Shown piece by piece: positions 9,404-32,509 of a stretch of DNA of 64,000 bases (position 1 is its first letter; each line of letters begins with the position of its first letter). The DNA is from Dictyostelium discoideum (taxonomy: Eukaryota). The DNA lies in contig CM000152.2 of the NCBI GenBank assembly GCA_000004695.1, positions 1,248,001-1,312,000 on the forward strand, read 5' to 3'. The position numbers were made by a program, and so were the translations under genes. The notes under the pieces are model-generated. The model saw only the letters and a list, made by a program, of their open reading frames with translations, was not told the DNA's origin and did not search any database.

Positions 9404-10539
9404 TACTACTACTACTACTATCACTAACTTGTTGTAAATATAATAAATTTTTATATGAAGCATTGTCTAAAAAATTTAAAACATTTTCATCAATTTTATA
9501 ACATGTTGGTAATATAAAACCTCTATCTCTAATTGATAATGATTCTAATAAAACTAAATAAATACAATAGATTCTATTTAAATTATTTGATATATCATTA
9601 TTGAACATTGTTGAAATAAGTAAATTAATTTCATTATCTCTATTTTCACTTTGTTGTTGATTAAATAAAATTTGATTTTGATCTTTAAAACTTAATTTAT
9701 CAGAATTAAAATTTTCAAATTCATTATTATAAAATGAATCAATTTGTTTGAAAAATTCTTTATTACAAAAGTATGGATAACCTCTTTGAAACATTGTTCC
9801 TTTTCCATAAATTATAGTTTCAATACATGAACCTTCAAATGAGATTGAATTAAATTCTACAACATAATCTAAAAATTTCATTGTTTTTAAAATAAATACC
9901 TCTTGAATATCAACTCGATAATATTTTTCAAATGATTCTTGTGCTGGAAATAAAACCAACATAAATGAAAACATATTCTCTAAAAGATATGATTCAATAC
10001 TACTAAAATCTTCCCACCATTTTGATTTAATTAATGTAAATTGAACATTTGAATTATTTAAAACATTTTTTTTATCATTATTAATATAATAATCAATACA
10101 AATTTTTCTAATTAATTTCTTTTTTAATTTTTAAAAAAAAAAATAAAAAAATTAAAAGTATTAATATTAGTAAAAAGTTTGAAAAAAAATTATAATTTCT
10201 AATTACTAATTATTAATTACTTACTAATGTATTATTTTTATAAAAATATTGATTTTCATCAATAAAAAATATTTGAAATTTTGTTTTTCTATTTAAAACA
10301 TTTGCAATAAAAGATTCGAAATAATGAAAGAATAAAATTGATTGACATTTATCTGTTGATAATAATTGTTTATCTTTTATTTTATGTGATGAAATATTAA
10401 ATGTTGAAAATAGATATAAAATTAAAGAATCACCATCAATAAGAAATGGTTCATCTGCTCCAAAATCTGATAAAACATTAAATGTTTTTGTTGGAAATAA
10501 TAAATCACCTAACATTAATTTTTTTTCAATATTTTCCAT
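4983..10539 (-). CDS. DDX60-like / Ski2-family superfamily-2 DExH helicase, about 1816 aa; complement(join(4983..10118,10225..10539))
   Basis: Helicase motif I ALICASTSSGKTF, motif II IIFDEVHQI, motif III LSATLGN, C-terminal domain motifs GIAAHHGG and FATSTLAVGVNAPAKSSVF, and motif VI QCAGRAGRRGFD. The helicase core sits in the middle of a very large protein, as in DDX60. The frame upstream of the annotated Met at 9974 is open to 10118 with an AG acceptor at 10119-10120. The ORF 10213-10539 starts at an ATG and ends on a perfect GTAAGT donor at 10219-10224, in phase 0, giving a 106-nt intron. A KEKE repeat and a poly-Asn stretch are present. Confidence 0.75.
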
Positions 10540-10941: not shown

Positions 10942-11964
10942 TTAATTAGTTGTTGTTGATTTTAAATTTGATTTTAAAATCATTTCATTTAATTGAATTG
11001 ATTTTAAATGATTATTACCATATACTAAAACTGAATGATTATAAGAATTTGTATAACATTGATTAATAAATTTTAATAAATTTTTAATATCAGAATTTAA
11101 TTTATCAATATCAAGATCTTGTTTATTTTGATTTTGTAATTTTAATTGATTGAATTGATTTCTTTGTTTAATTAATGATAATAGATATTTCTCATTAATT
11201 CTACCTAAATGGTAATAACAATCAACCAATTCACCAGATGTTGAAGATTTGAAAATCGATTCAACATGTCTGGTTAACTCTTTATAATGTTGAATTGATT
11301 GAACCAAGTAATCGAAATTATTGTAAACCAAAGACAACTTTTCAAAAGTTTTCGATAACTTTATATGATAAATTAACCAACATTGATGATTCAAATTCAA
11401 TCTTGACAATACATCTCTTTCAAATTTTAATAATCTTTTTAAAATATTCTCAATTATTGGCATCTCCTGATCAGCAGTTGACAAATTAACATCATTGAAT
11501 AACAATTGCTCACTATTGATAAACTCTTTAAATTCATTGATTCCTGCTAAAATCAATACCAATTCTGGATCCTTATTTCTCTTATTTTGTTTCTTTTTAT
11601 TGAATTCACAAGTGTTACTTGTATTTGAACATTTCCAATTCTCTTGTAATTTCTTTGTATCTTTATTAAAATAAATTTCTGGTGAAATAAATTCAACACC
11701 ATCATTACAATGGAAACAATAAATTGATGATAAATATCTTTCATCCTCTGTTGAATCACTACATCTTGAACATTTACATAAAAAGTTTTTACTATTATAT
11801 AATATTTTTTGTCTTTCAATTGTTGGTAATAATAAATCAACATATGAATCAACAATTTCTTCATCTTTTTCAATTTTTTTACATGCTCTCATTTCTAAAT
11901 TTTTATCTATAAAAAAAAAAAAAAAAAAAAAAGGAGAAATTTTTTATAAAAAATTAGTAATAAT

Positions 11965-11998
<34 letters not shown>

Positions 11999-12744
11999 AA
12001 TCCCCTTTGAACTATACCTTTAATTGTAAAAAATATATTTGGTTCACAAGAATGATTTAATAAAGCTGGTTTATAGAAATAACCATTTGAAATTGGTTTA
12101 CGATTAAAGTCATTTGAAAGACCAGAGAATGAATTAATATAGATTGAAGAAATTATTTGTAAAAACTCATCTTTATTAAAGATTGCTAATAATGATGGAT
12201 CAGAATTCTCTTGTTGTAATTGATTGATAAATTGTTGGAAATTAATATCATACTTTTCAATGAATGATTTATTAATTTCAATGAATTTCTCTAATTGATT
12301 TGAAAGTTTACCAACTGTTTCTTGATATTTATCACTTTCAATCTTATTTCTAATCATTATTCTCAATGCCAATAAACATGTTGATACATCACATTCATTC
12401 TTTATTGATGATTCAATCAATTTATTAATGAATGAACATTCCAATTGATGTGTCATATCATTTGAACAAATTTCTGAACAAAACCACATATTACATCCAA
12501 ATTTACATTGAATTGATTTATTATTTGTTTGTTGTGGTTGTTGGGATGGTTGTTGTACTTGTTCAACTTCCGATTGTTTACAACATAAGAAACAGTAATC
12601 TTTGTTCATATGAAATTCTAATGGAATTGATGCAAATGATTCTTCTGGGAATAATAATTCTCCAACTTTAATTTCATTTGTAGCTACAACAAAATTTCCT
12701 CTTTCATCATTATTATTTACTAATTTACATTTATCTGTAATCAT
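10942..12744 (-). CDS. SMYD-family SET + MYND zinc-finger lysine methyltransferase, about 563 aa; complement(join(10942..11906,12018..12744))
   Basis: SET N-region GNFVVATNEIKVGELL. MYND finger CFLCC...CKFGCNMWFCSEICSNDMTHQLEC. NHSCEPN motif followed by a GTATAG donor in phase 1. An aatatAG acceptor is followed by the SET-C region EEIVDSYVDLLLPTIERQKIL and post-SET cysteines FLCKCSRC. The intron is 111 nt. Confidence 0.72.
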
Positions 12745-13225: not shown

Positions 13226-13756
13226 ATGAACGGTCAAGGAAAGTATGTAGGATTTGGAAATGAAAAATCATCATCAGATTCACCATTTCCAGAATTACGT
13301 TCCAATTGGAGGGAACTCATTTATTTAAGATCTTGGCAAGCATCAGGTTTTGTTACAGTTTTATATTATTTCAGCTTTTTAGTTGGATTAATGTATTTCA
13401 TTCAAAACATTGTATTATTCACTAGAGACCTTGGTGCAGGTGGTTTCTTCCTTGGTTTACTCTATGGTACTTTGTATTTCATTAGTTTTATTTTAGCCGC
13501 TCGTATCGTTTCAGAAATCGTTTTATCAATTTTCGATATTAGAGATAACATTTACAGAATTTCAGCAAGCTCTGGTCCATCCATTGTTTCAAGTGGTCCA
13601 TCAACTTCATCATATCAAGGTTCATACCAACAACCAACTTATCAACCACCACAACCATCCCAACAACAACAACAACCATCCCAACAACAATCTTACCAAC
13701 AATCATCTTCAACTGAATTCCCAAAATACCAAGAACCATATCAAGGTAACCTTTAA
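13226..13756 (+). CDS. Hypothetical small membrane protein (176 aa): two predicted TM helices followed by a Q/P/Y/S-rich low-complexity tail
   Basis: ATG at 13226 with an A-rich leader. Hydrophobic segments FVTVLYYFSFLVGLMYFIQNIVLF and GGFFLGLLYGTLYFISFILAARIVSEIVLSIF. The tail reads SYQGSYQQPTYQPPQPSQQQQQPSQQQSYQQ. No family recognised. Confidence 0.5.
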   Translation: MNGQGKYVGFGNEKSSSDSPFPELRSNWRELIYLRSWQASGFVTVLYYFSFLVGLMYFIQNIVLFTRDLGAGGFFLGLLYGTLYFISFILAARIVSEIVLSIFDIRDNIYRISASSGPSIVSSGPSTSSYQGSYQQPTYQPPQPSQQQQQPSQQQSYQQSSSTEFPKYQEPYQGNL

Positions 13757-16520: not shown

Positions 16521-17280
16521 TTTACTTATTTTTTAAAAAAAAAACAATTTTCCTAACTAATAATTTTTTTAAAAAAAAAAGATAAAAGATTTTTACCAAA
16601 AGAATTTTTTTCAAATAAAAATTTTCAATCAAGTATTATTAAAAATAAAAATGATGATGATTATGATTATGATAGTAATAATAATGAAAAATCAATAAAG
16701 AATTTTTTTAAAACATTAAAAGATAAAGATATTAAAGGTGCTTTCAAGGATTTCAAAGAGAAACAAGCTTCAATCACATTAGGTTTCAAAGAGAATAAAG
16801 AAGAATTTGCAAATTTACAAAAAATGCATGACCAAAAACCATTACCACCATTAAATGAAAATGATAAAAAAGCAATGGAACAATTTGGTTTACCAGGTAA
16901 TGATATAATGGTACCATTTATATCATTAACAAATAATGGAAATAATAATAACAATAATAATAATAATAATAACAATAATAATATGATGGGACCAAGACAA
17001 TATAGTTTTTTAACCAAATTGTGGGTTCGTATTATTCCATATGTACCAGTATCATGGTTATTAAGACCAAATGAATCTTATAGAATCCTTTCAACCATTG
17101 ACCCATTAGAACCAACTTTAATATCAACCTCTTCAAATTTTAAAGATATTCAACATCATTGGAACCTTATCGATAAAGAACTCTATAATAGTTTAAAGGT
17201 CTTACCAACAACCTTTGAGAAAAATCATCGTTTAGATTCTTTCTTAAATATTAAACTTCATTCTTTTCCAACTCGTCCTG

Positions 17281-17291
<11 letters not shown>
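16354..17291 (+). CDS. Hypothetical protein with an N-terminal mitochondrial-type presequence (about 273 aa); join(16354..16465,16582..17291)
   Basis: Exon 1 MWISKTSKPNGLFLFFRPILRNPYFVLEKQNTNYLIT is basic, hydroxylated and without acidic residues. It ends on a GTAACA donor at 16466 in phase 1. An aaaaAG acceptor lies at 16580-16581, giving a 116-nt intron. Exon 2 reads through the annotated ORF 16824-17291 in frame (KRFLPKEFF...MHDQKPLPPLNENDKKAMEQFGLPGNDIMVPF...(N)n...WVRIIPYVPVSWLLRPNESYRIL). Confidence 0.5.
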
Positions 17292-17323
<32 letters not shown>

Positions 17324-17393
17324 ATAGTTTTTTTTTATTTTTAAATAATAAATTTATTATTATTATTATTATTATTGTTTTTTTTTTTAAATT

Positions 17394-18777
17394 TTAAGAT
17401 GCCTCTGGAGAATCGAATAGTTTTTTACATTCATCTTCCATAAAATCTTTATAAACTTCGAATCTATGATTTAAGGATTTTTCAGTATGAATTTTTAGAT
17501 AGGAACCCAAGCCACCATCTCTACTACTTGAACCATATACAACTCTTTTAACTCTACTATGAACTAGAGCCATTGAGCACATTATGCAGGGCTCTTTAGT
17601 TATAAATAAATGAAAGTTTGTCGCTAAATATTGTCCAAGATTTACAAAACTTAAAATATTACATTCTTCTTTTTCTTCTTTTTCTTCTTTTTCTTCTTTT
17701 TCTTTTTCTTCATCATTATCATTACAAATTTCATTTTCATTTTTATTTTCATTTTTATTTTCATTTTCGTTTCGATTTTCAAATTGTTTCTCTTTTTCAA
17801 ATTTTTTTTGTTCTTTCATTTGTTTTTTAATATCATCAACTTGTTCAGTTGATAATTTATTGGTTATTGTCATTATACAATGAGAAATGATTGGTGAAAT
17901 ATATTGAGTCTCTGAGATTTCAGGTGTTTCGTCCACTGATATTCTATTGGTTTGATCATATGATGTTGCAACGATTTTATTAGTATTTGGGTCAATTAAA
18001 ACTGCACCAATTCCTTTATGACCTCTCTTTTTACCAATCTCAGCTTGCTCAATAGCTAATGACATATACTTTCTCATTTCTAATAATGTTTCATCTTTTA
18101 CATTTGATATTAATGGTGTTGAACTATTATTATTATTAATATTATTATTATTATTATTATTATAAAGATGGTTAGTACAAAACAATATGAATAAAAAAAA
18201 AAAAAAAAGAAAATAATAAAAAAATAAAAAAATCATACAAAATATGAGCTCTAAATACACATGGCCAAATATTATAATTCCAATCCTCCCATATTTCATA
18301 AAGCAAAGGTGGATATTTTGGTACTTTTTCAATTGAAACTATAAAATCATTACTTTTTATAAATTTAATAATTCCTTTTTGTTCATTTGATAATGATTGA
18401 TATTCACTATCATCATCATTACCTATAAATTTAATTTCACCCAACTCTTTATCATATTCAACATTCTCTAATATAATCTTTAAATTCTTAAATCTAGATT
18501 CACCACAAATTAATAATTGTAATAAATTACCTGTTTGTGATGATTGTTTTGTTGAATTTTTTGAAACTTTATTATCTTTTTCTACTTCTTCTTCTTCCTC
18601 TTCTTTATGTTTATCTTTTTCTTTATCACCATCAACAATTGTAGTTGATGGTGGAGGTGGTGATGGTTTCTTTTTTATTTTCTTTAAATGATTAAATTCA
18701 GAGGTGAAATCATCATTAATAATGTGTGATAATGTTTTTATATGTTTATTTGCTGTTTGTGCTAATATATCAATCAC
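17394..18777 (-). CDS. tRNA-specific adenosine-34 deaminase non-catalytic subunit (Tad3/ADAT3-like); complement(join(17394..18123,18239..18777)). The true 5' end is probably in an upstream exon.
   Basis: CDA-fold zinc motifs H-C-I (ISHCIMT, with the catalytic Glu replaced as in Tad3/ADAT3) and TKEPCIMCSMALVHSRVKRVVYG. The flanks LLEMRKYMSLAIEQAEIGKKRGHKGIGAVLIDPNTNKIVATSYD and LGSYLKIHTEKSLNHRFEVYKDF are collinear with the human ADAT3 deaminase domain. The two overlapping ORFs 18172-18777 and 17394-18332 are joined by a GTATGA donor at 18233-18238 and an aataatAG acceptor at 18124-18125, giving a 115-nt intron in phase 2. The 18239-18777 exon has no in-frame ATG. The track's start codon there is GTG, and the frame is open upstream to about 18845. 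Confidence 0.7.
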
Positions 18778-18872
18778 ATATATATTATCTAATAATATTA
18801 TTAAAGAAGTGAGAATTAGAACTTGAGATGTTTTTTTTTTAATCTTTTAATTTTTTAATTTTTTTTTTTTTT

Positions 18873-19160
18873 TTACAAACCTAAAACCAAACCATATTCC
18901 TCAAAATCGTCCAAAACTGGTTTAACTTGAGTTTTTATTCTTTTTAAAAATTCATTTTCTTCTTCGGTGAATTTTGGTGTTTCAACTTTATTTTTATTAT
19001 TTTTACTGGTGTTTACTTTCTTTTGTTTATTTGATTCTTTTTTATTATTTTCACTTTTATTTATATTATTATTATCATCAATTATTTTAGTATTAATATC
19101 TAAATTAGTTTCTGATTGTTGTGTCATTTCATTATGATCTCTTTTATGAATACTACGCAT
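18873..19160 (-). CDS. 95-aa ORF MRSIHKRDHNEMTQQ...FEEYGLVLGL. Either a small basic protein or the first coding exon of the downstream Tad3-like gene.
   Basis: Genuine ATG at 19158-19160. Lys/Asn-rich. Its 3' end (ggtttgtaa) lies 95 nt upstream of the open frame of the Tad3-like exon. Only weak GTTTGT/GTTTGG donors are available. Confidence 0.3.
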   Translation of the reverse strand: MRSIHKRDHNEMTQQSETNLDINTKIIDDNNNINKSENNKKESNKQKKVNTSKNNKNKVETPKFTEEENEFLKRIKTQVKPVLDDFEEYGLVLGL

Positions 19161-19447: not shown

Positions 19448-20800
19448 TTATTTCATAGATTTTGGTACAGATTTTTTATAATATGGTATTGAATTTGATT
19501 CTTTTAATCTTCTATAAGCTTCTCTAATATGTCTTGGACGAATTGGTCCAGTTTCTCTCCATTCTTCCATGATTGATCTTGCCAATTCAACTATTTCACC
19601 AACGAAAACCTTTGCAATACCACCCATAACAATTGCAGAGGTTTGATTTACAGGTGCAGATAAAACTGATTGCATAACTTTTTTAATATTTGCACGTTGA
19701 AATGATGATCTTTTATAATATTCGAATCTAGTTTGTTGATCTTCTGAAAAATGTTTAATCAATGTATTCATTTGAGTATTCTCTCTAACTTGCATTTCTG
19801 AAAGATTGAATGTTGATTCATCATCGTCATCATCATTACCCTCACCTTCTGATGAATCAGAGTCTGAATCAGAGTCAGAATCAGAATCAGAATCAGAGTC
19901 AGAATCATCTGAATCCGATTCGTCAGAATCCGAATCATCAGAGTCTTCATCAGAATCTTCATCACTACCACTACCACTTCCATCTTCATCGTCATCGTCT
20001 GATTGTAATCTACCTCTATTTTTATTTTTTTGAAATATTTTTTTTCTTTTTCTATTACTTTTTTCAAAATCTGAATCACTTTCACTTTCTTCATCTTCAT
20101 CTTCATCCTCATCTTCTTCATCATTATTATTATTGTTATTTTTCTTTTTATTTTTTGAATTATTATCATCGTCATCATCATCCTCATCTTCATCATCATC
20201 GTTATCAGCACTTTCATCATCTTCAGATTGTTCTATTTTTTTTGAAGTTTTATTTACTGTTGGTTTTTTATTAGCCGATGCTGTTGAAGGTGTTGATATA
20301 CGTTGTTTCTTTGTTGATTGTGAAGGTGATGGTAAATCTAAAATACTTGGTGTACTTGGTTGACTATTAGATGTTGATGTAGATGATGTTGAGGTTGTTG
20401 CTGTTGTGGTGGTTGTGGTTGCTGTTGTTGGTGGTGGTGGTGTACCTAATGGAGGTGCAACTGTTGTAACTGATTGTTGTGCTGCTAATTGTTTCTTTGT
20501 TAATTTCTTTGGTTTTTGTTCTTTTGTATCTTTTTGATCTTTTGGTTCTTTAGGAGTTGCAGGTGTTTTCTTTTCTTTTGATACCTTTGGTTCTTTTGAT
20601 TCTTTTGATTGTTTTGGTTGTTTTGGTTCTTTAGTTTGTTTTGGTTCTTTTGGTTGTTTTGGTTCTTTAGTTTTTGTTACTTTTGGTTCTTTAGGTGTAG
20701 TTGTTTTCTTTTCTTTATTCTCTTTAGCTTTTGGTGTTTTCTTTTCTTTACCAGTTGATCCTGGTGAAGCTATATCCATCATTGGTTGTGATTCTGACAT
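19448..20800 (-). CDS. taf11: TFIID subunit TAF11 (TAFII28) with a long N-terminal K/E/P-rich and D/S-rich acidic extension (450 aa)
   Basis: C-terminal histone-fold region FSEDQQTRFEYYKRSSFQRANIKKVMQSVL...AIVMGGIAKVFVGEIVELARSIMEEWRETGPIRPRHIREAYRRLK matches human TAF11 (FSEEQLNRYEMYRRSAF...ISKVFVGEVVEEALDV...REAVRRLK). ATG at 20798-20800. Confidence 0.8.
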   Translation of the reverse strand: MSESQPMMDIASPGSTGKEKKTPKAKENKEKKTTTPKEPKVTKTKEPKQPKEPKQTKEPKQPKQSKESKEPKVSKEKKTPATPKEPKDQKDTKEQKPKKLTKKQLAAQQSVTTVAPPLGTPPPPTTATTTTTTATTSTSSTSTSNSQPSTPSILDLPSPSQSTKKQRISTPSTASANKKPTVNKTSKKIEQSEDDESADNDDDEDEDDDDDDNNSKNKKKNNNNNNDEEDEDEDEDEESESDSDFEKSNRKRKKIFQKNKNRGRLQSDDDDEDGSGSGSDEDSDEDSDDSDSDESDSDDSDSDSDSDSDSDSDSDSSEGEGNDDDDDESTFNLSEMQVRENTQMNTLIKHFSEDQQTRFEYYKRSSFQRANIKKVMQSVLSAPVNQTSAIVMGGIAKVFVGEIVELARSIMEEWRETGPIRPRHIREAYRRLKESNSIPYYKKSVPKSMK

Positions 20801-21373: not shown

Positions 21374-25426
<4,053 letters not shown>

Positions 25427-28261: not shown

Positions 28262-30082
28262 TTACATAGCACCATATTTTGGACCACCACCACCTTCTGG
28301 TACAGTGAAATCTATATTTTGAGTTGGATCTTTAATATCACAAGTTTTACAATGTAAACAGAATACACTATTTCTAACTAATTCTTTTTCACCTTTTTCA
28401 CCTTCAACCCATTCATAGACACCAGCGGGACAGAATCTACCTTCTGGACCATCGTAAATATCACGATTTACTTTTTTAGCTACTTCCATATCTCTAACCT
28501 TTAAGTGAATTGGTTGATTTTCTTCATGATTTGTACCAGATCTCATGACGGAGGTCATAAGATCAAAAGTGATTTGGCCATCTGGTTTCTTGTATTCAAT
28601 CTTTTTACATTCGGCAGCAGGTTTTAAACGTTCATTATCAGGTTTACCATTACTAAGAGTCCATGGAGTATGACCACGGAAAATATACATTTCCAAAGCA
28701 CCATAAATTAATCCTGGTATAGTACCCCAATGAAGACTTGGACGATAGTTTCTAACTTCTCTTAATTCTTTCCAAACCCAAGATTTCTTTAATTCTTCAG
28801 GATATTCATTAATTAATAATGGTTCAACTGATGGTTTATCTTGCTCTTGTTCTTGTTCTTTTTCTTGTTGAGAAATTAATTGTGGAAAAGCAGCTTCAGC
28901 AGCCAAGATACCAGTTTTCATTGCATAATGTGAACCTTTAACTTTTGGTACATGAACGAAACCTGCAGTACAACCAACTAAAGCACCACCTGGGAAAACA
29001 AGTTTTGGAATTGATTGGAAACCACCTTCATTGATGGTTCTAGCACCATATTGAATACATGTACCACCCTCTAACATATCCTTTACCATTGGATGTAATT
29101 TAAGTTTTTGAAATTCTTGATATGGATTTAAGTATGGATTTGAATAATCTAAACCAACGACTAAACCTAAATTAACAGTATTATTCTCTGCATGATAAAT
29201 AAAACTACCACCTAATAACTCATCACTCAATGGATAGCCCAATGTATGAATTACCAAACCTTGTTGATGTTTCTCTGGTTTAATTTCCCATGTTTCTTTA
29301 ATACCCAAACCAAAGGTTTGTGGTTCACATTCATCACGTAAATTGAATTTTTCAAATAAACCTTTAGTTAAACTACCTCTACACCCCTCGGCGAATATTG
29401 TTAATCTTGCATTCAACTCCATACCTCTAGTGAAATTGGAGGTCAATGAACCATCTTTAGCAATACCCATATCGTTGGTTGCAATGCCTCTGACAGCACC
29501 ATTATCGTGGTATAACACCTCTGATGCTGCAAAACTTGGATAAACCTCAACACCCATTGACTCTGCTTGTTCACCTAACCATCTGACAACATTACCTAAA
29601 CTAATGATATAGTTACCCTCGTTATGCATTAATCTTGGTGTTGGTAATCTTAATGATCTATTCTCTGTTAGAAAGTAGAATTTATCTTGTTTCACTTCGG
29701 TTATCAATGGTGCACCTTTCTCTTTCCAATCTGGTATTAATTCATTCAATGCTTTTGGATCCATTACTGCACCTGATAATATATGTGAACCAACTTCTGA
29801 ACCTTTCTCAACAACACATACTCTTAAATCTTTACCTGCTTTCTCTGATAATTGTTTTAATCTAATTGCTGTTGATAAACCTGATGGTCCTGCACCAACA
29901 ATAACAACATCAAATTGATCTGAATCTCTTGGTGGTAATTCTTGTTCACTTGAAAAAAATCTAATTGATGAATAAATTGATTTCATATTTTGATGATTTT
30001 TTCCAAATAAAAATTTATTTGATGATGATAATGAAACATTTTTGGTAATATTTTTACCAATTAATGAAAATGATTTTAACAT
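28262..30082 (-). CDS. etfdh: Electron-transfer flavoprotein:ubiquinone oxidoreductase (ETF-QO / ETFDH), mitochondrial, 606 aa, single exon
   Basis: FAD dinucleotide-binding site FDVVIVGAGPSGLSTAIRL. C-terminal 4Fe-4S ferredoxin-type cluster CPAGVYEWVEGEKGEKELVRNSVFCLHCKTCDIKDP ending in GGPKYGAM. N-terminal presequence-like MLKSFSLIGKNITKNVSLSSSNKFLFGKNHQNMKSIYSSIRFF. ATG at 30080-30082. Confidence 0.9.
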   Translation of the reverse strand: MLKSFSLIGKNITKNVSLSSSNKFLFGKNHQNMKSIYSSIRFFSSEQELPPRDSDQFDVVIVGAGPSGLSTAIRLKQLSEKAGKDLRVCVVEKGSEVGSHILSGAVMDPKALNELIPDWKEKGAPLITEVKQDKFYFLTENRSLRLPTPRLMHNEGNYIISLGNVVRWLGEQAESMGVEVYPSFAASEVLYHDNGAVRGIATNDMGIAKDGSLTSNFTRGMELNARLTIFAEGCRGSLTKGLFEKFNLRDECEPQTFGLGIKETWEIKPEKHQQGLVIHTLGYPLSDELLGGSFIYHAENNTVNLGLVVGLDYSNPYLNPYQEFQKLKLHPMVKDMLEGGTCIQYGARTINEGGFQSIPKLVFPGGALVGCTAGFVHVPKVKGSHYAMKTGILAAEAAFPQLISQQEKEQEQEQDKPSVEPLLINEYPEELKKSWVWKELREVRNYRPSLHWGTIPGLIYGALEMYIFRGHTPWTLSNGKPDNERLKPAAECKKIEYKKPDGQITFDLMTSVMRSGTNHEENQPIHLKVRDMEVAKKVNRDIYDGPEGRFCPAGVYEWVEGEKGEKELVRNSVFCLHCKTCDIKDPTQNIDFTVPEGGGGPKYGAM

Positions 30083-30473: not shown

Positions 30474-32509
30474 TTAATACGTAAATAAACTAATATAACC
30501 ATCATCACCACCACTAACTACCATATCAGAACTTGAAGAAATATCAAAGAAATTAATTGGAGTACCTGGAAAAGGTTTATGTTCTAAAGTTTTAATTAAT
30601 GGTTGTGATGAACTGATATCCCAAAGTCTAACACAACCATCATCAGCAGAGGTTGCAAAGAAATCACCATTTTTTGACCATTGAGCATGAGTTACAATCT
30701 TTGAGGCTGGATTATAGTTTGAATCATAAATTTTATGTCTTAATTCGTGAAGTGGTTTCTTACTATTTCTAGCATCAAATACGAATGAACAATTTACCGT
30801 ACCAGATAAAGAGATATAATTTGCACAAGGACTATAACAACAAATGTTTACATCCAATTGACCGGTTTTAATAGTGACTGCACGTACAGTGGTTCTAATA
30901 TCATAGACGCAAATTGATTGATTGATATCATTTGAAGCTGAGGCCACGACATCATGATTCCTAGGATTCCAAGCCACCGATGAAACATCTTTCTCTTGAA
31001 CGAATAGATTTAAATAACGATCGGGTTTATTGATATCAATGATTGTTACGAAACCTTTAACTGGTTCATCAGTGATCGAACCGATACCACCTGCAATCTT
31101 ATCGCAATTCTTACCATAACCAAAGGACAAATCAGTGACAGCACATGGCCAAGACGCCATATCTTGACTATTATTGACATTGATATAATCTTGACTTGTG
31201 TAATTGTATAGGTAGATTGACTTATCTTGAAAGCCGCCAACCGCCAAATCCAAATAACGATGCAACGATAACCTCAAGCAAGGACTATGATTCTCGTGTT
31301 CAAAATAGCCCAACACCTCACCCCCGTCAACTGACCACACTGTAATAGTGCCGTCCTTACTGGCAGTGATAACTCTATAGCCATCCAATGAAAAATGACC
31401 CTCGTTACATTGCTTTGATTGGAATTTCAAATGTTGAATCGACTGATTGCCGTAATCGTAGAGGAAGGCATTACTTGAGCCCTTTGAAAGTGCCAGAATC
31501 TTTTTAGATTTATTAGTTGGGTCGAATTTAACATCCAATATATTCTCACCACCAGATCCAAACATATCAATCTTATTCATTCTGTTCGCAATTGTCTTTA
31601 TGATTCTACTCTGATTATATTTAATTCCATTGACACAAGCATTTGCCTTTCTCCCCAACTCATCACCGATCATTATCTGCTCAAATTGTTTTTGATTTAT
31701 ATCTCGTTGTTGAATCTGTCTCAATTTCTCTTGATTCAAGTCATAGTTAATATCAAGTCGTTTATTATTATTTACATCCCTTTCGAATGGATTCATTGAT
31801 TCACCATCGATACCAATCGATGCATCAACTCTACCACTCAATCTCTTATTTCTATTAACTAATCTTGAATCTTTTTTCATCTCTTTTAAATCTGTAAAAT
31901 ATCGAATTATATCAATCGGTGCTCTACCTGGTAACTGTTTACAAAGTCTATTCAATAATCCTAATCTATACCTTAACCCAATTGCACTATTTGTAATTAT
32001 CCTCTTTTCAACATCTGTCATTGGATAATGTAATTGTTTAAATCCTTCATAATTATTATCATTTTTCAACGTTATTCTACTTCTAATTGATAAATATGGT
32101 TTAATCATAGTACCACTTTTTATTAAATAATTTCTATCAAGTCTAAATTAATTATAATAATAAAATAATAAAATAATAAAATTTAAATATATAAATTTTT
32201 TTTTTTTTTTTTTTTTTCTTTTTTTTTTTAACAAACTTACAATTTCGTTTTATCATTACTACGAATATTTGTTGATTTAATTATATTCATTTTTAATTTA
32301 TTTAATTCTTTATTATTTGTAATTGATTTAATTTTCATTGGATCATTTTGTGGAAATCCAAATAATTGTCTATAATTTGCAATTGTTTGTGAAAGATAAT
32401 TTAATTTCGATATTTCTGATTTCTATATTATTATTATTGTTGTTGGTGTTGTTGGTGTTGGTGTTGTTGTAGTTTTAGTTTTAGTTTATATTAGTAAATG
32501 GAAATGTAT

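Follow-up and report, generated by a model that had tools for sequence, protein, structure and literature searches.

The minus-strand locus 19160-17394 very probably represents one ordinary three-exon ADAT3/Tad3 gene, to judge from the 64-kb Dictyostelium discoideum window, that is, the whole stretch of DNA analysed here, within which all gene coordinates are numbered and refer to the minus strand. ADAT3/Tad3 is the non-catalytic partner in the eukaryotic tRNA A34 deaminase, which converts the wobble adenosine to inosine. The gene is conventional and of a kind already annotated in related dictyostelids. Comparative colinearity shows its structure, and its assignment to the family and the state of its motifs are shown as well.

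Structure of the ADAT3 locus

The initial annotation had described a principal N-terminal exon without an in-frame ATG and, 95 nt upstream, an ATG-started ORF of 95 aa as its possible first exon. Both were found. The frame of the second ORF, which carries the Tad3 N-domain, stays open between 18846 and the donor at 18238 and contains no Met codon, the earliest start available to the ORF lister being the GTG at 18777; the upstream ORF spans 19160-18873 on the minus strand and lies 95 nt upstream of this GTG. An in-frame stop is located five codons upstream of the ATG at 19160, with the frame open from 19175. Four other dictyostelids conserve, at the protein level, the exon without ATG as well as the ORF ahead of it, so that the pattern is not a product of chance.

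In the proposed model, exon 1 (19160-18881) begins with the start codon and encodes a disordered tail, which is followed by the first conserved part of the ADAT3 N-domain; the spliceosome would remove a 92-nt phase-1 intron of the U2 type (18880-18789) delimited by AG/GTTTGT (the slash marking the splice boundary) and the TTATTAG acceptor, with TTCTAAT as its putative branch site. The product of the spliced model has 519 aa and would combine an N-terminal tRNA-binding domain with a C-terminal deaminase fold (Table 1). Exon 1 encodes a low-complexity N-terminal tail followed by the conserved ...EEENEFLKRIKTQVKPVLDDFEEYGLVL segment, and its N-terminus MRSxHKRDHxEMTQ is kept in the alignment of the orthologs. 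Exon 2 (18239-18788), from which an in-frame ATG is absent, codes for the ADAT3 N-domain. Intron 2 (18238-18124) is canonical: all four orthologs share it at this position, where their donors are GTATGG, GTATGT, GTAAGT and GTATGT, and the residues HIFSTPL at its junction are largely invariant among them. The neighbouring genes TAFII28 and ETF-QO are common to the D. discoideum locus and D. purpureum. An exact look-up of the spliced models A and B, the 95-aa ORF, the truncated Met start and the neighbouring TAF11 in the protein collection gave no match.

Table 1. Features of the ADAT3 locus (positions in the window) and its dictyostelid orthologs
Feature	Positions	Strand	Description
Exon 1	18881..19160	minus	ATG 19160; 93 codons and first base of codon 94
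Intron 1	18789..18880	minus	92 nt, phase 1, GT-AG, 86% A+T
Exon 2	18239..18788	minus	last 2 bases of codon 94 to aa 276 and 2 bases of codon 277
Intron 2	18124..18238	minus	115 nt, phase 2, TT/GTATGA...AATAG/T; TACTAAC 18177-18171
Exon 3	17394..18123	minus	last base of codon 277 to aa 519 and TAA stop 17396-17394; deaminase-fold domain
5' splice site GTTTGT	18875..18880	minus	exonic AG before; off-consensus at +3 and +4
Potentially competing GTAAAA	18871..18876	minus	4 nt downstream of GTTTGT; conserved in three species
Putative branch site TTCTAAT	18815..18821	minus	branch A 18816, 27 nt before acceptor G
3' splice site AG, TTATTAG/AT	18789..18790	minus	conserved in three species
K80-P-V-L83, start of ADAT3 N-domain	18912..18923	minus	inside exon 1
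H358-C359-I360	17874..17882	minus	zinc-ligand His; Ile at catalytic Glu position
P455-C456-I-M-C459	17577..17591	minus	two zinc-ligand Cys; invariant; aligns to mouse ADAT3 PCVMC
E/K/N-rich low-complexity insert, about aa 376-431	17661..17828	minus	between H-C-I helix and PCxxC; ADAT3-specific loop
D. purpureum ortholog DICPUDRAFT_77728			intron 1 precisely lost; intron 2 kept
P. violaceum ortholog CYY_000945			GTATGT intron 1 donor; Ser at pseudo-catalytic position; intron 2 kept
D. cf. discoideum ortholog ACTFIY_005474			intron 1 donor GTTTGT; intron 2 kept
D. citrinum ortholog ACTFIU_004925			intron 1 donor GTTTGT; intron 2 kept

Splice signals of intron 1

Every GT and AG was taken as a junction candidate and scored by phase. 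As had been stated in the initial annotation, the only donors that leave the required one base are atg/GTTTGG at 18892 and tag/GTTTGT at 18880; of these, GTTTGT is the donor and GTTTGG is not. The better-looking GTAAAA at 18876 leaves two bases instead of one and is in frame with none of the acceptors. The attattAG acceptor described previously (ATTATTAG) was confirmed, with the AG located at 18790-18789 instead of about 18796, and therefore exon 2 begins at 18788. Further in-phase AGs are present at 18823/22, 18763/62 and 18754/53.

The donor carries T at +3 and +4 and matches at -2, -1, +1, +2, +5 and +6; it mismatches both GTAAGT and GTATGT at +3, and GTAAGT also at +4. Intron 1 is a weak member of the U2-type GT-AG class and does not belong to another class. 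A U12-type intron was considered and rejected, GTTTGTAA together with the branch TTCTAAT fitting neither the /RTATCCTT donor nor the TCCTTAAC branch. The intron displays GT...AG and a putative branch motif at a distance from the AG that falls within 15-40 nt (GTTTGT...TTCTAAT...27 nt...TTATTAG), and its length is near the D. discoideum median intron of 104 bp. TTCTAAT is a putative branch site that fits wCTAAy, the commonest branch motif reported for D. discoideum introns (PMC2483917). The stretch TTCTAATTCT is identical in the D. discoideum window and D. citrinum, D. cf. discoideum being one base off (TTTTAATTCT); the motif is conserved in this three-species comparison within an intron that is otherwise rich in indels.

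Splicing according to the model fuses ...GLVL to D-NIYVIDIL..., and the predicted sequence at the joint of exons 1 and 2 is ...GGTTTGGTTTTAG/ATAATATATATGTG... (also written ...GAATATGGTTTGGTTTTAG/ATAATATATATGTGATTG...). We infer that intron 1 is removed from the mature mRNA, since the spliced model is colinear with the D. purpureum gene, which lacks this intron. The spliced-junction 27-mer had no match in metagenome contigs, and high-identity transcript-derived proteins for the locus were not present in the protein collection.

A is found at +3 in nine or ten of the ten other dictyostelid donors examined, a sample too small for a frequency, and our literature search yielded no figures for the +3 nucleotide frequency in Dictyostelium donors. 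An ab initio intron survey of the window was far too noisy with short ORFs and was rerun with ORFs of at least 100 codons, which gave one other clean intron, GTAAGTAA at 10224. Annotated neighbour genes in L001-L003 were solved with the donors GTAACA, GTAATT and GTAGGT, the last of which is ambiguous with GTTCAT. The same hexamer, GUUUGU, is known from the introns of Entamoeba, also an amoebozoan, where 88-90% of the introns carry it as the genome-wide consensus and U1 has changed to match (ACAAAC); according to the authors, the hexamer is capable of good pairing with the U6 ACAGA box (bioRxiv 10.1101/2022.06.08.495308). In contrast to this consensus, GTTTGT in Dictyostelium intron 1 is a single exception.

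Orthologs and alternative readings of the two ORFs

The initial annotation had pointed to D. purpureum and other dictyostelids for comparison. In D. purpureum, aa 1-263 are encoded by one uninterrupted ORF from which intron 1 is absent, and relative to the spliced model no residue is gained or lost at the junction. The spliced protein aligns without gaps across EEYGLVL/DNIYVIDIL with the annotated orthologs of D. cf. discoideum, D. citrinum, D. purpureum and P. violaceum, and dictyostelid orthologs share 46-93% identity over the full length. These ortholog gene models are themselves predictions; the continuous ORF of D. purpureum is independent of any splice prediction. In P. violaceum, the corresponding codon is interrupted in the same phase by an intron with the canonical donor A/GTATGT. 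The TTTTAG/GTTTGTAAAAAAAAA donor of the window recurs unchanged in D. cf. discoideum (L001) and in D. citrinum (L003), where it is used by the public annotations. Against D. cf. discoideum, exon 1 has eight of its nine substitutions at third codon positions, and the length of every indel is a multiple of three. In intron 1 the indels measure 1, 2, 6 and 16 nt and the substitutions are evenly spread without codon bias. By this measure of sequence change, exon 1 evolves as coding DNA and intron 1 does not. It is of minor evolutionary interest that this one intron position occurs in three states: P. violaceum has a canonical intron there, the D. discoideum/citrinum clade has an intron whose donor is weakened to GTTTGT, and D. 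purpureum has lost the intron precisely. Precise intron loss in the latter species has been documented in 202 cases (PMC4683709); DICPUDRAFT_77728 is absent from the listing in the supplements of that study.

Given a second ORF without ATG, which the ORF lister begins at GTG, and in-phase donors that are all off-consensus, the locus might be read as two genes, one for the 95-aa protein (19160-18873) and one for a Tad3-like protein with a non-AUG start such as GTG 18777. We regard this as extremely improbable, as both parts form one continuous ORF in D. purpureum, all four orthologs are colinear over the junction, the KPVL start of the ADAT3 N-domain sits in the upstream ORF, and the intervening segment, which keeps a branch motif, changes in the manner of non-coding sequence. 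A sequencing or assembly indel, concealing a gene that uses the GTAAAA donor at 18876 or has no intron, would account for the more familiar donor lying one base out of frame, and error-prone homopolymer runs are close by; however, three independent assemblies, each of a different taxon, agree over all 31 nt of TATGGTTTGGTTTTAGGTTTGTAAAAAAAAA, the segment between the ORFs has stops in the frame of exon 1, and the GTTTGT junction gives the D. purpureum protein exactly, which leaves an indel scarcely credible. Of the three explanations offered in the initial annotation, the non-consensus donor is strongly supported by the comparative data, and the indel and the separate genes with a non-AUG start are rejected because of the single ORF in D. 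purpureum, the GTTTGT identical in three assemblies and the conserved N-domain residues in exon 1. The same colinear ORF and the same residues support the upstream ORF as the first exon.

It is very unlikely that the two exons are joined by another junction, although each option is in phase with the open frame. Donor 18880 combined with the AG at 18823/22 would give a 59-nt intron and 11 extra residues, its combination with 18763/62 or 18754/53 would lose residues, and donor 18892 would lose GLVL; only 18880/18790 is gap-free against the D. purpureum ORF and the exon ends of P. violaceum. In the segment 18822-18791, an indel of 2 nt separates the window from D. cf. discoideum and one of 6 nt separates it from D. 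citrinum, and the segment is therefore not coding; the branch motif also lies within it.

With the AG/GTTTGT junction preferred, the GTAAAA that follows it may be considered as a tandem donor. Its use, with the predicted junction ...TTTTAGGTTT/ATAATAT..., would direct the reading frame into Leu-Gly-Leu-stop, and retention of intron 1 would lead to the 95-aa ORF, so that either event, at an appreciable rate, would yield a premature-stop mRNA tuning ADAT3 levels. This is unlikely, although three species share GTTTGTAAAA, which includes both GTs, and P. violaceum shows GTATGTAATT. Dictyostelid introns are A/T-rich and typically have a run of A behind the donor, so that the second GT may be there by accident. 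Moreover, AG/GTTTGT is expected to form more U1 pairs (-2, -1, +1, +2, +5, +6) than TT/GTAAAA (+1 to +4), a comparison based on the canonical U1 5' end. That the conserved donor pair 4 nt apart, or frequent retention of the weakly defined intron 1, acts as an unproductive-splicing switch for ADAT3 dosage in the D. discoideum/citrinum clade appears distinctly unlikely; if true, such a switch would set tRNA inosine levels through ADAT3 dosage.

The encoded protein and known tRNA deaminases

The C-terminal deaminase-fold domain matches PF14437 (1.1e-14) and PF00383 (3.3e-10) in Pfam. In the PDB profile search, the 519-aa product matched mouse ADAT3 (8.5e-35, the top match), T. brucei ADAT3 (2.5e-20) and yeast Tad3 (1.3e-13), followed by ADAT2 (9.4e-8) and Tad2 (5.3e-6). 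Foldseek was run with the AlphaFold model of the ortholog P0001, which is 93% identical to the window protein and of moderate quality (pLDDT 62); ADAT3/Tad3 chains came out on top with about 455 columns, mouse ADAT3 first at 2e-18, compared with about 237 columns for TadA and ADAT2. By these sequence matches, the product is closer to ADAT3/Tad3 than to ADAT2/Tad2/TadA. The latter proteins share the deaminase fold and the zinc motifs with the Dictyostelium C-terminal domain, but they keep the catalytic H-A-E, are devoid of the ADAT3 N-domain and are more weakly similar by many orders of magnitude.

An ADAT3-specific N-terminal domain precedes the deaminase domain, as indicated by the alignment and the ortholog model. 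The N-region shares the motifs KPVL, HLKRIKK, LQLLLC and VPKxPP...WP with distant ADAT3 homologs. The first of these reads KPVL, RPIL or QPVL in the dictyostelid orthologs P0003-P0004 as well as in the more distant P0005, P0006 and P0009, is lacking in the plant homologs P0007 and P0008, and is confidently folded in the P0001 model (pLDDT about 80). Its counterpart in mouse ADAT3 is presumably residues 25-33. These residues pack on ADAT3-C, and the N-domains of ADAT3 differ in detail between lineages (PMC8216470).

The replacement of the catalytic Glu by Ile (H-C-I), noted in the initial annotation, was recovered by multiple alignment of ADAT3 homologs, with PCIMC following. MAFFT misaligned an E. 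coli TadA sequence near HAE, and this row was left out for the Glu position. His358 is invariant, and the residue at H+2 is I, V, A or S in the homologs P0003-P0009, never E; the mouse equivalents of H358 and I360 are H223 and V225 (PMC8216470). A PDB search with a 67-aa fragment around H-C-I returned only chance HIV-protease matches. The deaminase fold keeps the zinc ligands H358, C456 and C459, Ile360 replacing the proton-shuttling Glu, and together with the ADAT3 profile matches the H-C-I motif supports the assignment as an inactive Tad3/ADAT3-type subunit.

Mouse/human ADAT3 (PDB 7NZ7/7NZ8 chain B; PMC8216470) has the same two-domain layout of a tRNA-binding N-domain and a deaminase fold. 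The mouse protein likewise keeps the zinc ligands H...PCxxC, has a hydrophobic residue in place of the catalytic Glu and carries a specific loop between the zinc motifs, which was removed for crystallisation (PMC8216470). The E/K/N-rich loop of Dictyostelium is much longer, differs in length between orthologs and has a pLDDT below 50 in the P0001 model. Unlike mouse ADAT3, the Dictyostelium protein has a low-complexity N-terminal extension of about 60 residues. Its C-terminal tail ...KLFDSPEAS, with D514 and E517 near the end and a pLDDT below 50 for the last residues, aligns to mouse ...RQLDP and ends in ...DSPEAS compared with ...DPDP and its penultimate Asp in mouse, where D348 is the acidic fourth ligand capping the zinc pocket. 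Yeast Tad3p (PDB 7BV5 chains C/D) and T. brucei ADAT3 (PDB 8AW3 chain 3; PMC9643335) follow the same architecture and inactive-subunit logic, and their sequence and fold matches are significant, but weaker than those of mammalian ADAT3.

Heterodimerisation and absent catalysis are extrapolated from the complexes of mouse, yeast and trypanosome. On this analogy, the product should be an inactive subunit that positions tRNA for its catalytic partner, an ADAT2/Tad2 whose gene would lie in another part of the genome. In agreement with the earlier observation that the 64-kb window contains no Tad2/ADAT2 gene, tblastn of the window with TadA and the gene's own deaminase core returned this locus only, and PCxxC in an open frame occurs in the window only at 17591.

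The role of ADAT3 as the inactive partner of the essential wobble A-to-I tRNA deaminase is already well established in other eukaryotes. The coincidence of the weakened hexamer GTTTGT with the Entamoeba consensus donor is of minor evolutionary interest. The value of the finding lies mainly in annotation: an ATG-less exon and an adjoining small ATG ORF resolve into one conventional ADAT3 gene, which gene finders requiring GTA donors would split or truncate.

Gene model and exon junctions

The ADAT3/Tad3 gene is distributed over three minus-strand frames (table below). As the initial annotation had observed, the main exon lacks an in-frame ATG and an ATG-initiated ORF lies upstream of it; the frame of that ATG is closed by a stop five codons upstream. 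All GT and AG sites between 18960 and 18740 were enumerated with their phases. In agreement with the earlier reading, only two donors in this interval, GTTTGG 18892 and GTTTGT 18880, leave the single base required by the second frame, while GTAAAA 18876 leaves two bases over and no acceptor fits it. Acceptor AGs in phase are found there at 18823/22, 18790/89, 18763/62 and 18754/53; the ATTATTAG acceptor, previously placed at about 18796, ends at 18789. The spliced three-exon model (model A) encodes 519 aa.

Features of the ADAT3 locus and other genes of the window
Feature	Position	Strand	Remark
95-codon ORF	ATG 19160 to TAA 18875-18873	minus	ORF listing
Second frame, Met-free	open 18846 to past 18239	minus	sole ORF-lister start GTG 18777
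Third frame	~18123 to stop 17396-17394	minus	ORF listing
Model A exon 1	19160-18881	minus	phase enumeration
Model A exon 2	18788-18239	minus	phase enumeration
Model A exon 3	18123-17394	minus	phase enumeration
Tandem GTAAAA	18871-18876	minus	candidate unproductive alternative 5' splice site, 4 nt downstream of GTTTGT
TTCTAAT	18821-18815	minus	putative branch site, 27 nt from acceptor; fits wCTAAy
TAFII28/TAF11 histone-fold protein	19448-20800	minus	PF04719, 5.8e-36
Protein kinase	21374-25426
ETF-ubiquinone oxidoreductase (ETF-QO)	28262-30082
WD40 protein	30474-32108
DUF4282 protein	13226-13756
SET-domain ORF	11944-12744		weak

Full-length annotated orthologs were retrieved by protein-collection search from four taxa, D. 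cf. discoideum (P0001), D. citrinum (P0002), D. purpureum (P0003) and Polysphondylium violaceum (P0004). Model A aligned colinearly and gap-free across the junction with 4/4 of these proteins (EEYGLVL-D-NIYVIDILAQTANKHIK in the window, EEFNLVL-E-NVYIIEIEPQSANKHIK in D. purpureum, EENGLIL-T-NIFTAYIQPKKANIFIK in P. violaceum), and the exon-1 N-terminus M..KRD[HY].EMT was also kept. Each of the four proteins was mapped back to its own genomic DNA. Residues 1-263 of the D. purpureum protein derive from one unbroken ORF with no intron at the junction site, so that the contiguity of both parts and the exact junction residues are independent of splice prediction. P. violaceum carries a 69-nt intron at the identical codon and phase with a canonical donor (A/GTATGT...TATAG/CA; slashes mark splice sites), and the donor in D. 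cf. discoideum and D. citrinum is identical to that of the window (TTTTAG/GTTTGTAAAAAAAAA) and is used by the public annotations of both. The TAFII28/TAF11 and ETF-QO genes flank the D. purpureum ortholog as well, a synteny that agrees with orthology.

The initial annotation had preferred the upstream ORF as exon 1, joined through a non-consensus donor, and had proposed a comparison with the D. purpureum locus. The fusion of both ORFs in one ORF there indicates a single gene, and the preferred reading is supported by ortholog colinearity and the shared GTTTGT donor. The two alternatives considered with it, an indel in the sequence and separate genes with a non-AUG start of Tad3, are rejected. 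An alternative 59-nt intron is ruled out, as a 2-nt indel between 18822 and 18791 would then fall in coding DNA.

Exon 1 also contributes to the ADAT3 N-domain. The [KRQ]-P-[VI]-L motif opening this domain was located by homolog alignment in exon 1 (K80-L83, 18923-18912); it is seen in the orthologs P0003-P0004 and the distant homologs P0005, P0006 and P0009, and is not kept in the plant homologs P0007 and P0008. Since the first beta-strand, NIYVIDI, is encoded by exon 2, intron 1 interrupts a conserved domain. Residues 62-84, encoded by exon 1, reach a pLDDT of ~80 in the AlphaFold model of ortholog P0001 (93% identical). We take residues 25-33 of mouse ADAT3 to be the equivalent of the exon-1 KPVL segment. 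These far N-terminal mouse residues pack against the C-terminal domain (PMC8216470).

Intron 1 and its donor

The donor of intron 1 is off-consensus, yet the intron is a normal GT-AG intron of no different class, and U12 motifs are absent from it. By the general rules of U1:5'ss pairing, AG/GTTTGT would pair with a canonical U1 5' end at -2, -1, +1, +2, +5 and +6, and TT/GTAAAA only at +1 to +4. GTTTGT is the consensus donor of Entamoeba, and its good pairing with the U6 ACAGA box has been pointed out (bioRxiv 10.1101/2022.06.08.495308). No published +3 frequencies for Dictyostelium donors were found in the literature. In a small sample of other dictyostelid donors (n=10: intron 2 in five taxa, P. 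violaceum intron 1, the intron at window 10224 and three neighbouring genes in L001-L003), A occupies +3 in 9 or 10. The local consensus-donor example is a clean canonical 106-nt intron on the minus strand (10119-10224, 92% A+T, tta/GTAAGTAA ... AAAAAAG), which links ORFs 10701-10216 and 10130-4986.

The tandem GTAAAA is kept in D. cf. discoideum and D. citrinum, and splicing from it is predicted to yield Leu-Gly-Leu-stop. Regulated unproductive use of this donor, or intron retention, is the sole mildly novel possibility at the locus, and we consider it very improbable.

A three-way DNA alignment of the window, D. cf. discoideum and D. citrinum was scored for substitutions per codon position. 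In exon 1, 8/9 substitutions relative to D. cf. discoideum fall in third positions and all indels are 3, 6 or 9 nt, whereas intron 1 has indels of 1, 2, 6 and 16 nt and substitutions without codon-position bias. Within intron 1, TTCTAATTCT is the same in the window and D. citrinum, with one base changed in D. cf. discoideum. The motif wCTAAy is the commonest branch motif reported for D. discoideum introns (PMC2483917). As P. violaceum and the discoideum/citrinum clade share an intron at the same site, intron 1 predates the Dictyostelium/Polysphondylium violaceum split. Its donor changed from a GTATGT-like form to GTTTGT in the discoideum/citrinum clade, and D. purpureum has deleted the intron precisely, an ordinary event given the 202 precise losses reported for this species (PMC4683709).

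Intron 2 measures 115 nt in the window (18124-18238); its counterparts in D. cf. discoideum (L001 3921-4219) and D. citrinum (L003 3942-4284) are longer, at about 300 and about 345 nt, and expanded (ATT)n/(AAT)n microsatellites account for nearly all of the difference. Near the 5' part of intron 2 is a TACTAAC-like motif, which in the window lies 48 nt ahead of the AG.

Neighbouring genes

The TAF11 neighbour upstream has a very long, low-complexity N-terminal region rich in Ser/Asp/Glu and Lys/Pro. Its stop lies only ~290 nt from the ADAT3 ATG, and the ADAT3 promoter must therefore be very short. The gap between the ADAT3 gene and a convergent 155-aa ORF (16824-17291) with no Pfam match contains, right after the ADAT3 stop, a (TTTA)n microsatellite of ~10 units (minus-strand reading, about 17281-17330). 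ARAGORN detected no tRNA genes in the window. Exact window protein sequences, the single-exon TAF11 included, were absent from a collection of 15 billion proteins, in which sister-species proteins occur at 83-93% identity.

Identity and expected role of the product

Pfam assigns the product a deaminase zinc-binding region (PF14437, 1.1e-14; PF00383, 3.3e-10). A profile of five dictyostelid proteins matched, among PDB sequences, mouse ADAT3 (8.5e-35), T. brucei ADAT3 (2.5e-20) and yeast Tad3 (1.3e-13), and on the catalytic side ADAT2 (9.4e-8) and Tad2 (5.3e-6). Foldseek with the ortholog model placed ADAT3/Tad3 chains on top (2e-18 to 7e-11, ~455 columns aligned), while TadA and ADAT2 aligned over only ~237 columns, corresponding to the C-domain alone. 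The zinc ligand H358 is invariant in the homolog alignment. At H358+2, the catalytic-Glu position of TadA and ADAT2, dictyostelids have Ile and other ADAT3 homologs Val, Ile or Ala; P. violaceum has Ser (S-H-C-S-M in P0004), so the residue replacing Glu varies even among dictyostelids. The corresponding residues of mouse ADAT3 are H223 and V225, and its C289 and C292 match P455-C456-I-M-C459 of the window (PMC8216470; PDB alignment). A long E/K/N-rich insert at about aa 376-431 sits where the ADAT3-specific loop is. Each species has its own loop length, suggesting an insert that is disordered and evolves rapidly. The loop of D. cf. discoideum P0001 contains a His7 tract together with additional acidic repeats around aa 393-399.

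The motif state and the ADAT3/Tad3 matches bear out the earlier proposal that H-C-I marks an inactive Tad3-type subunit. As also noted before for Tad2/ADAT2, no second deaminase gene occurs within the 64-kb window; the ADAT2 partner must be elsewhere, the usual arrangement. Judged from these sequence comparisons, the locus is an unexceptional ADAT3 gene in which one splice donor is weak yet conserved, and annotated orthologs of this layout already exist. Its pre-mRNA would lose two short A/T-rich U2-type introns, with AG/GTTTGT used for intron 1. By analogy to the structures solved for mouse, yeast and T. brucei, the 519-aa product would bind tRNA via its N-domain, and its inactive deaminase fold would dimerise with ADAT2, which deaminates A34 (PMC8216470, PMC9643335).
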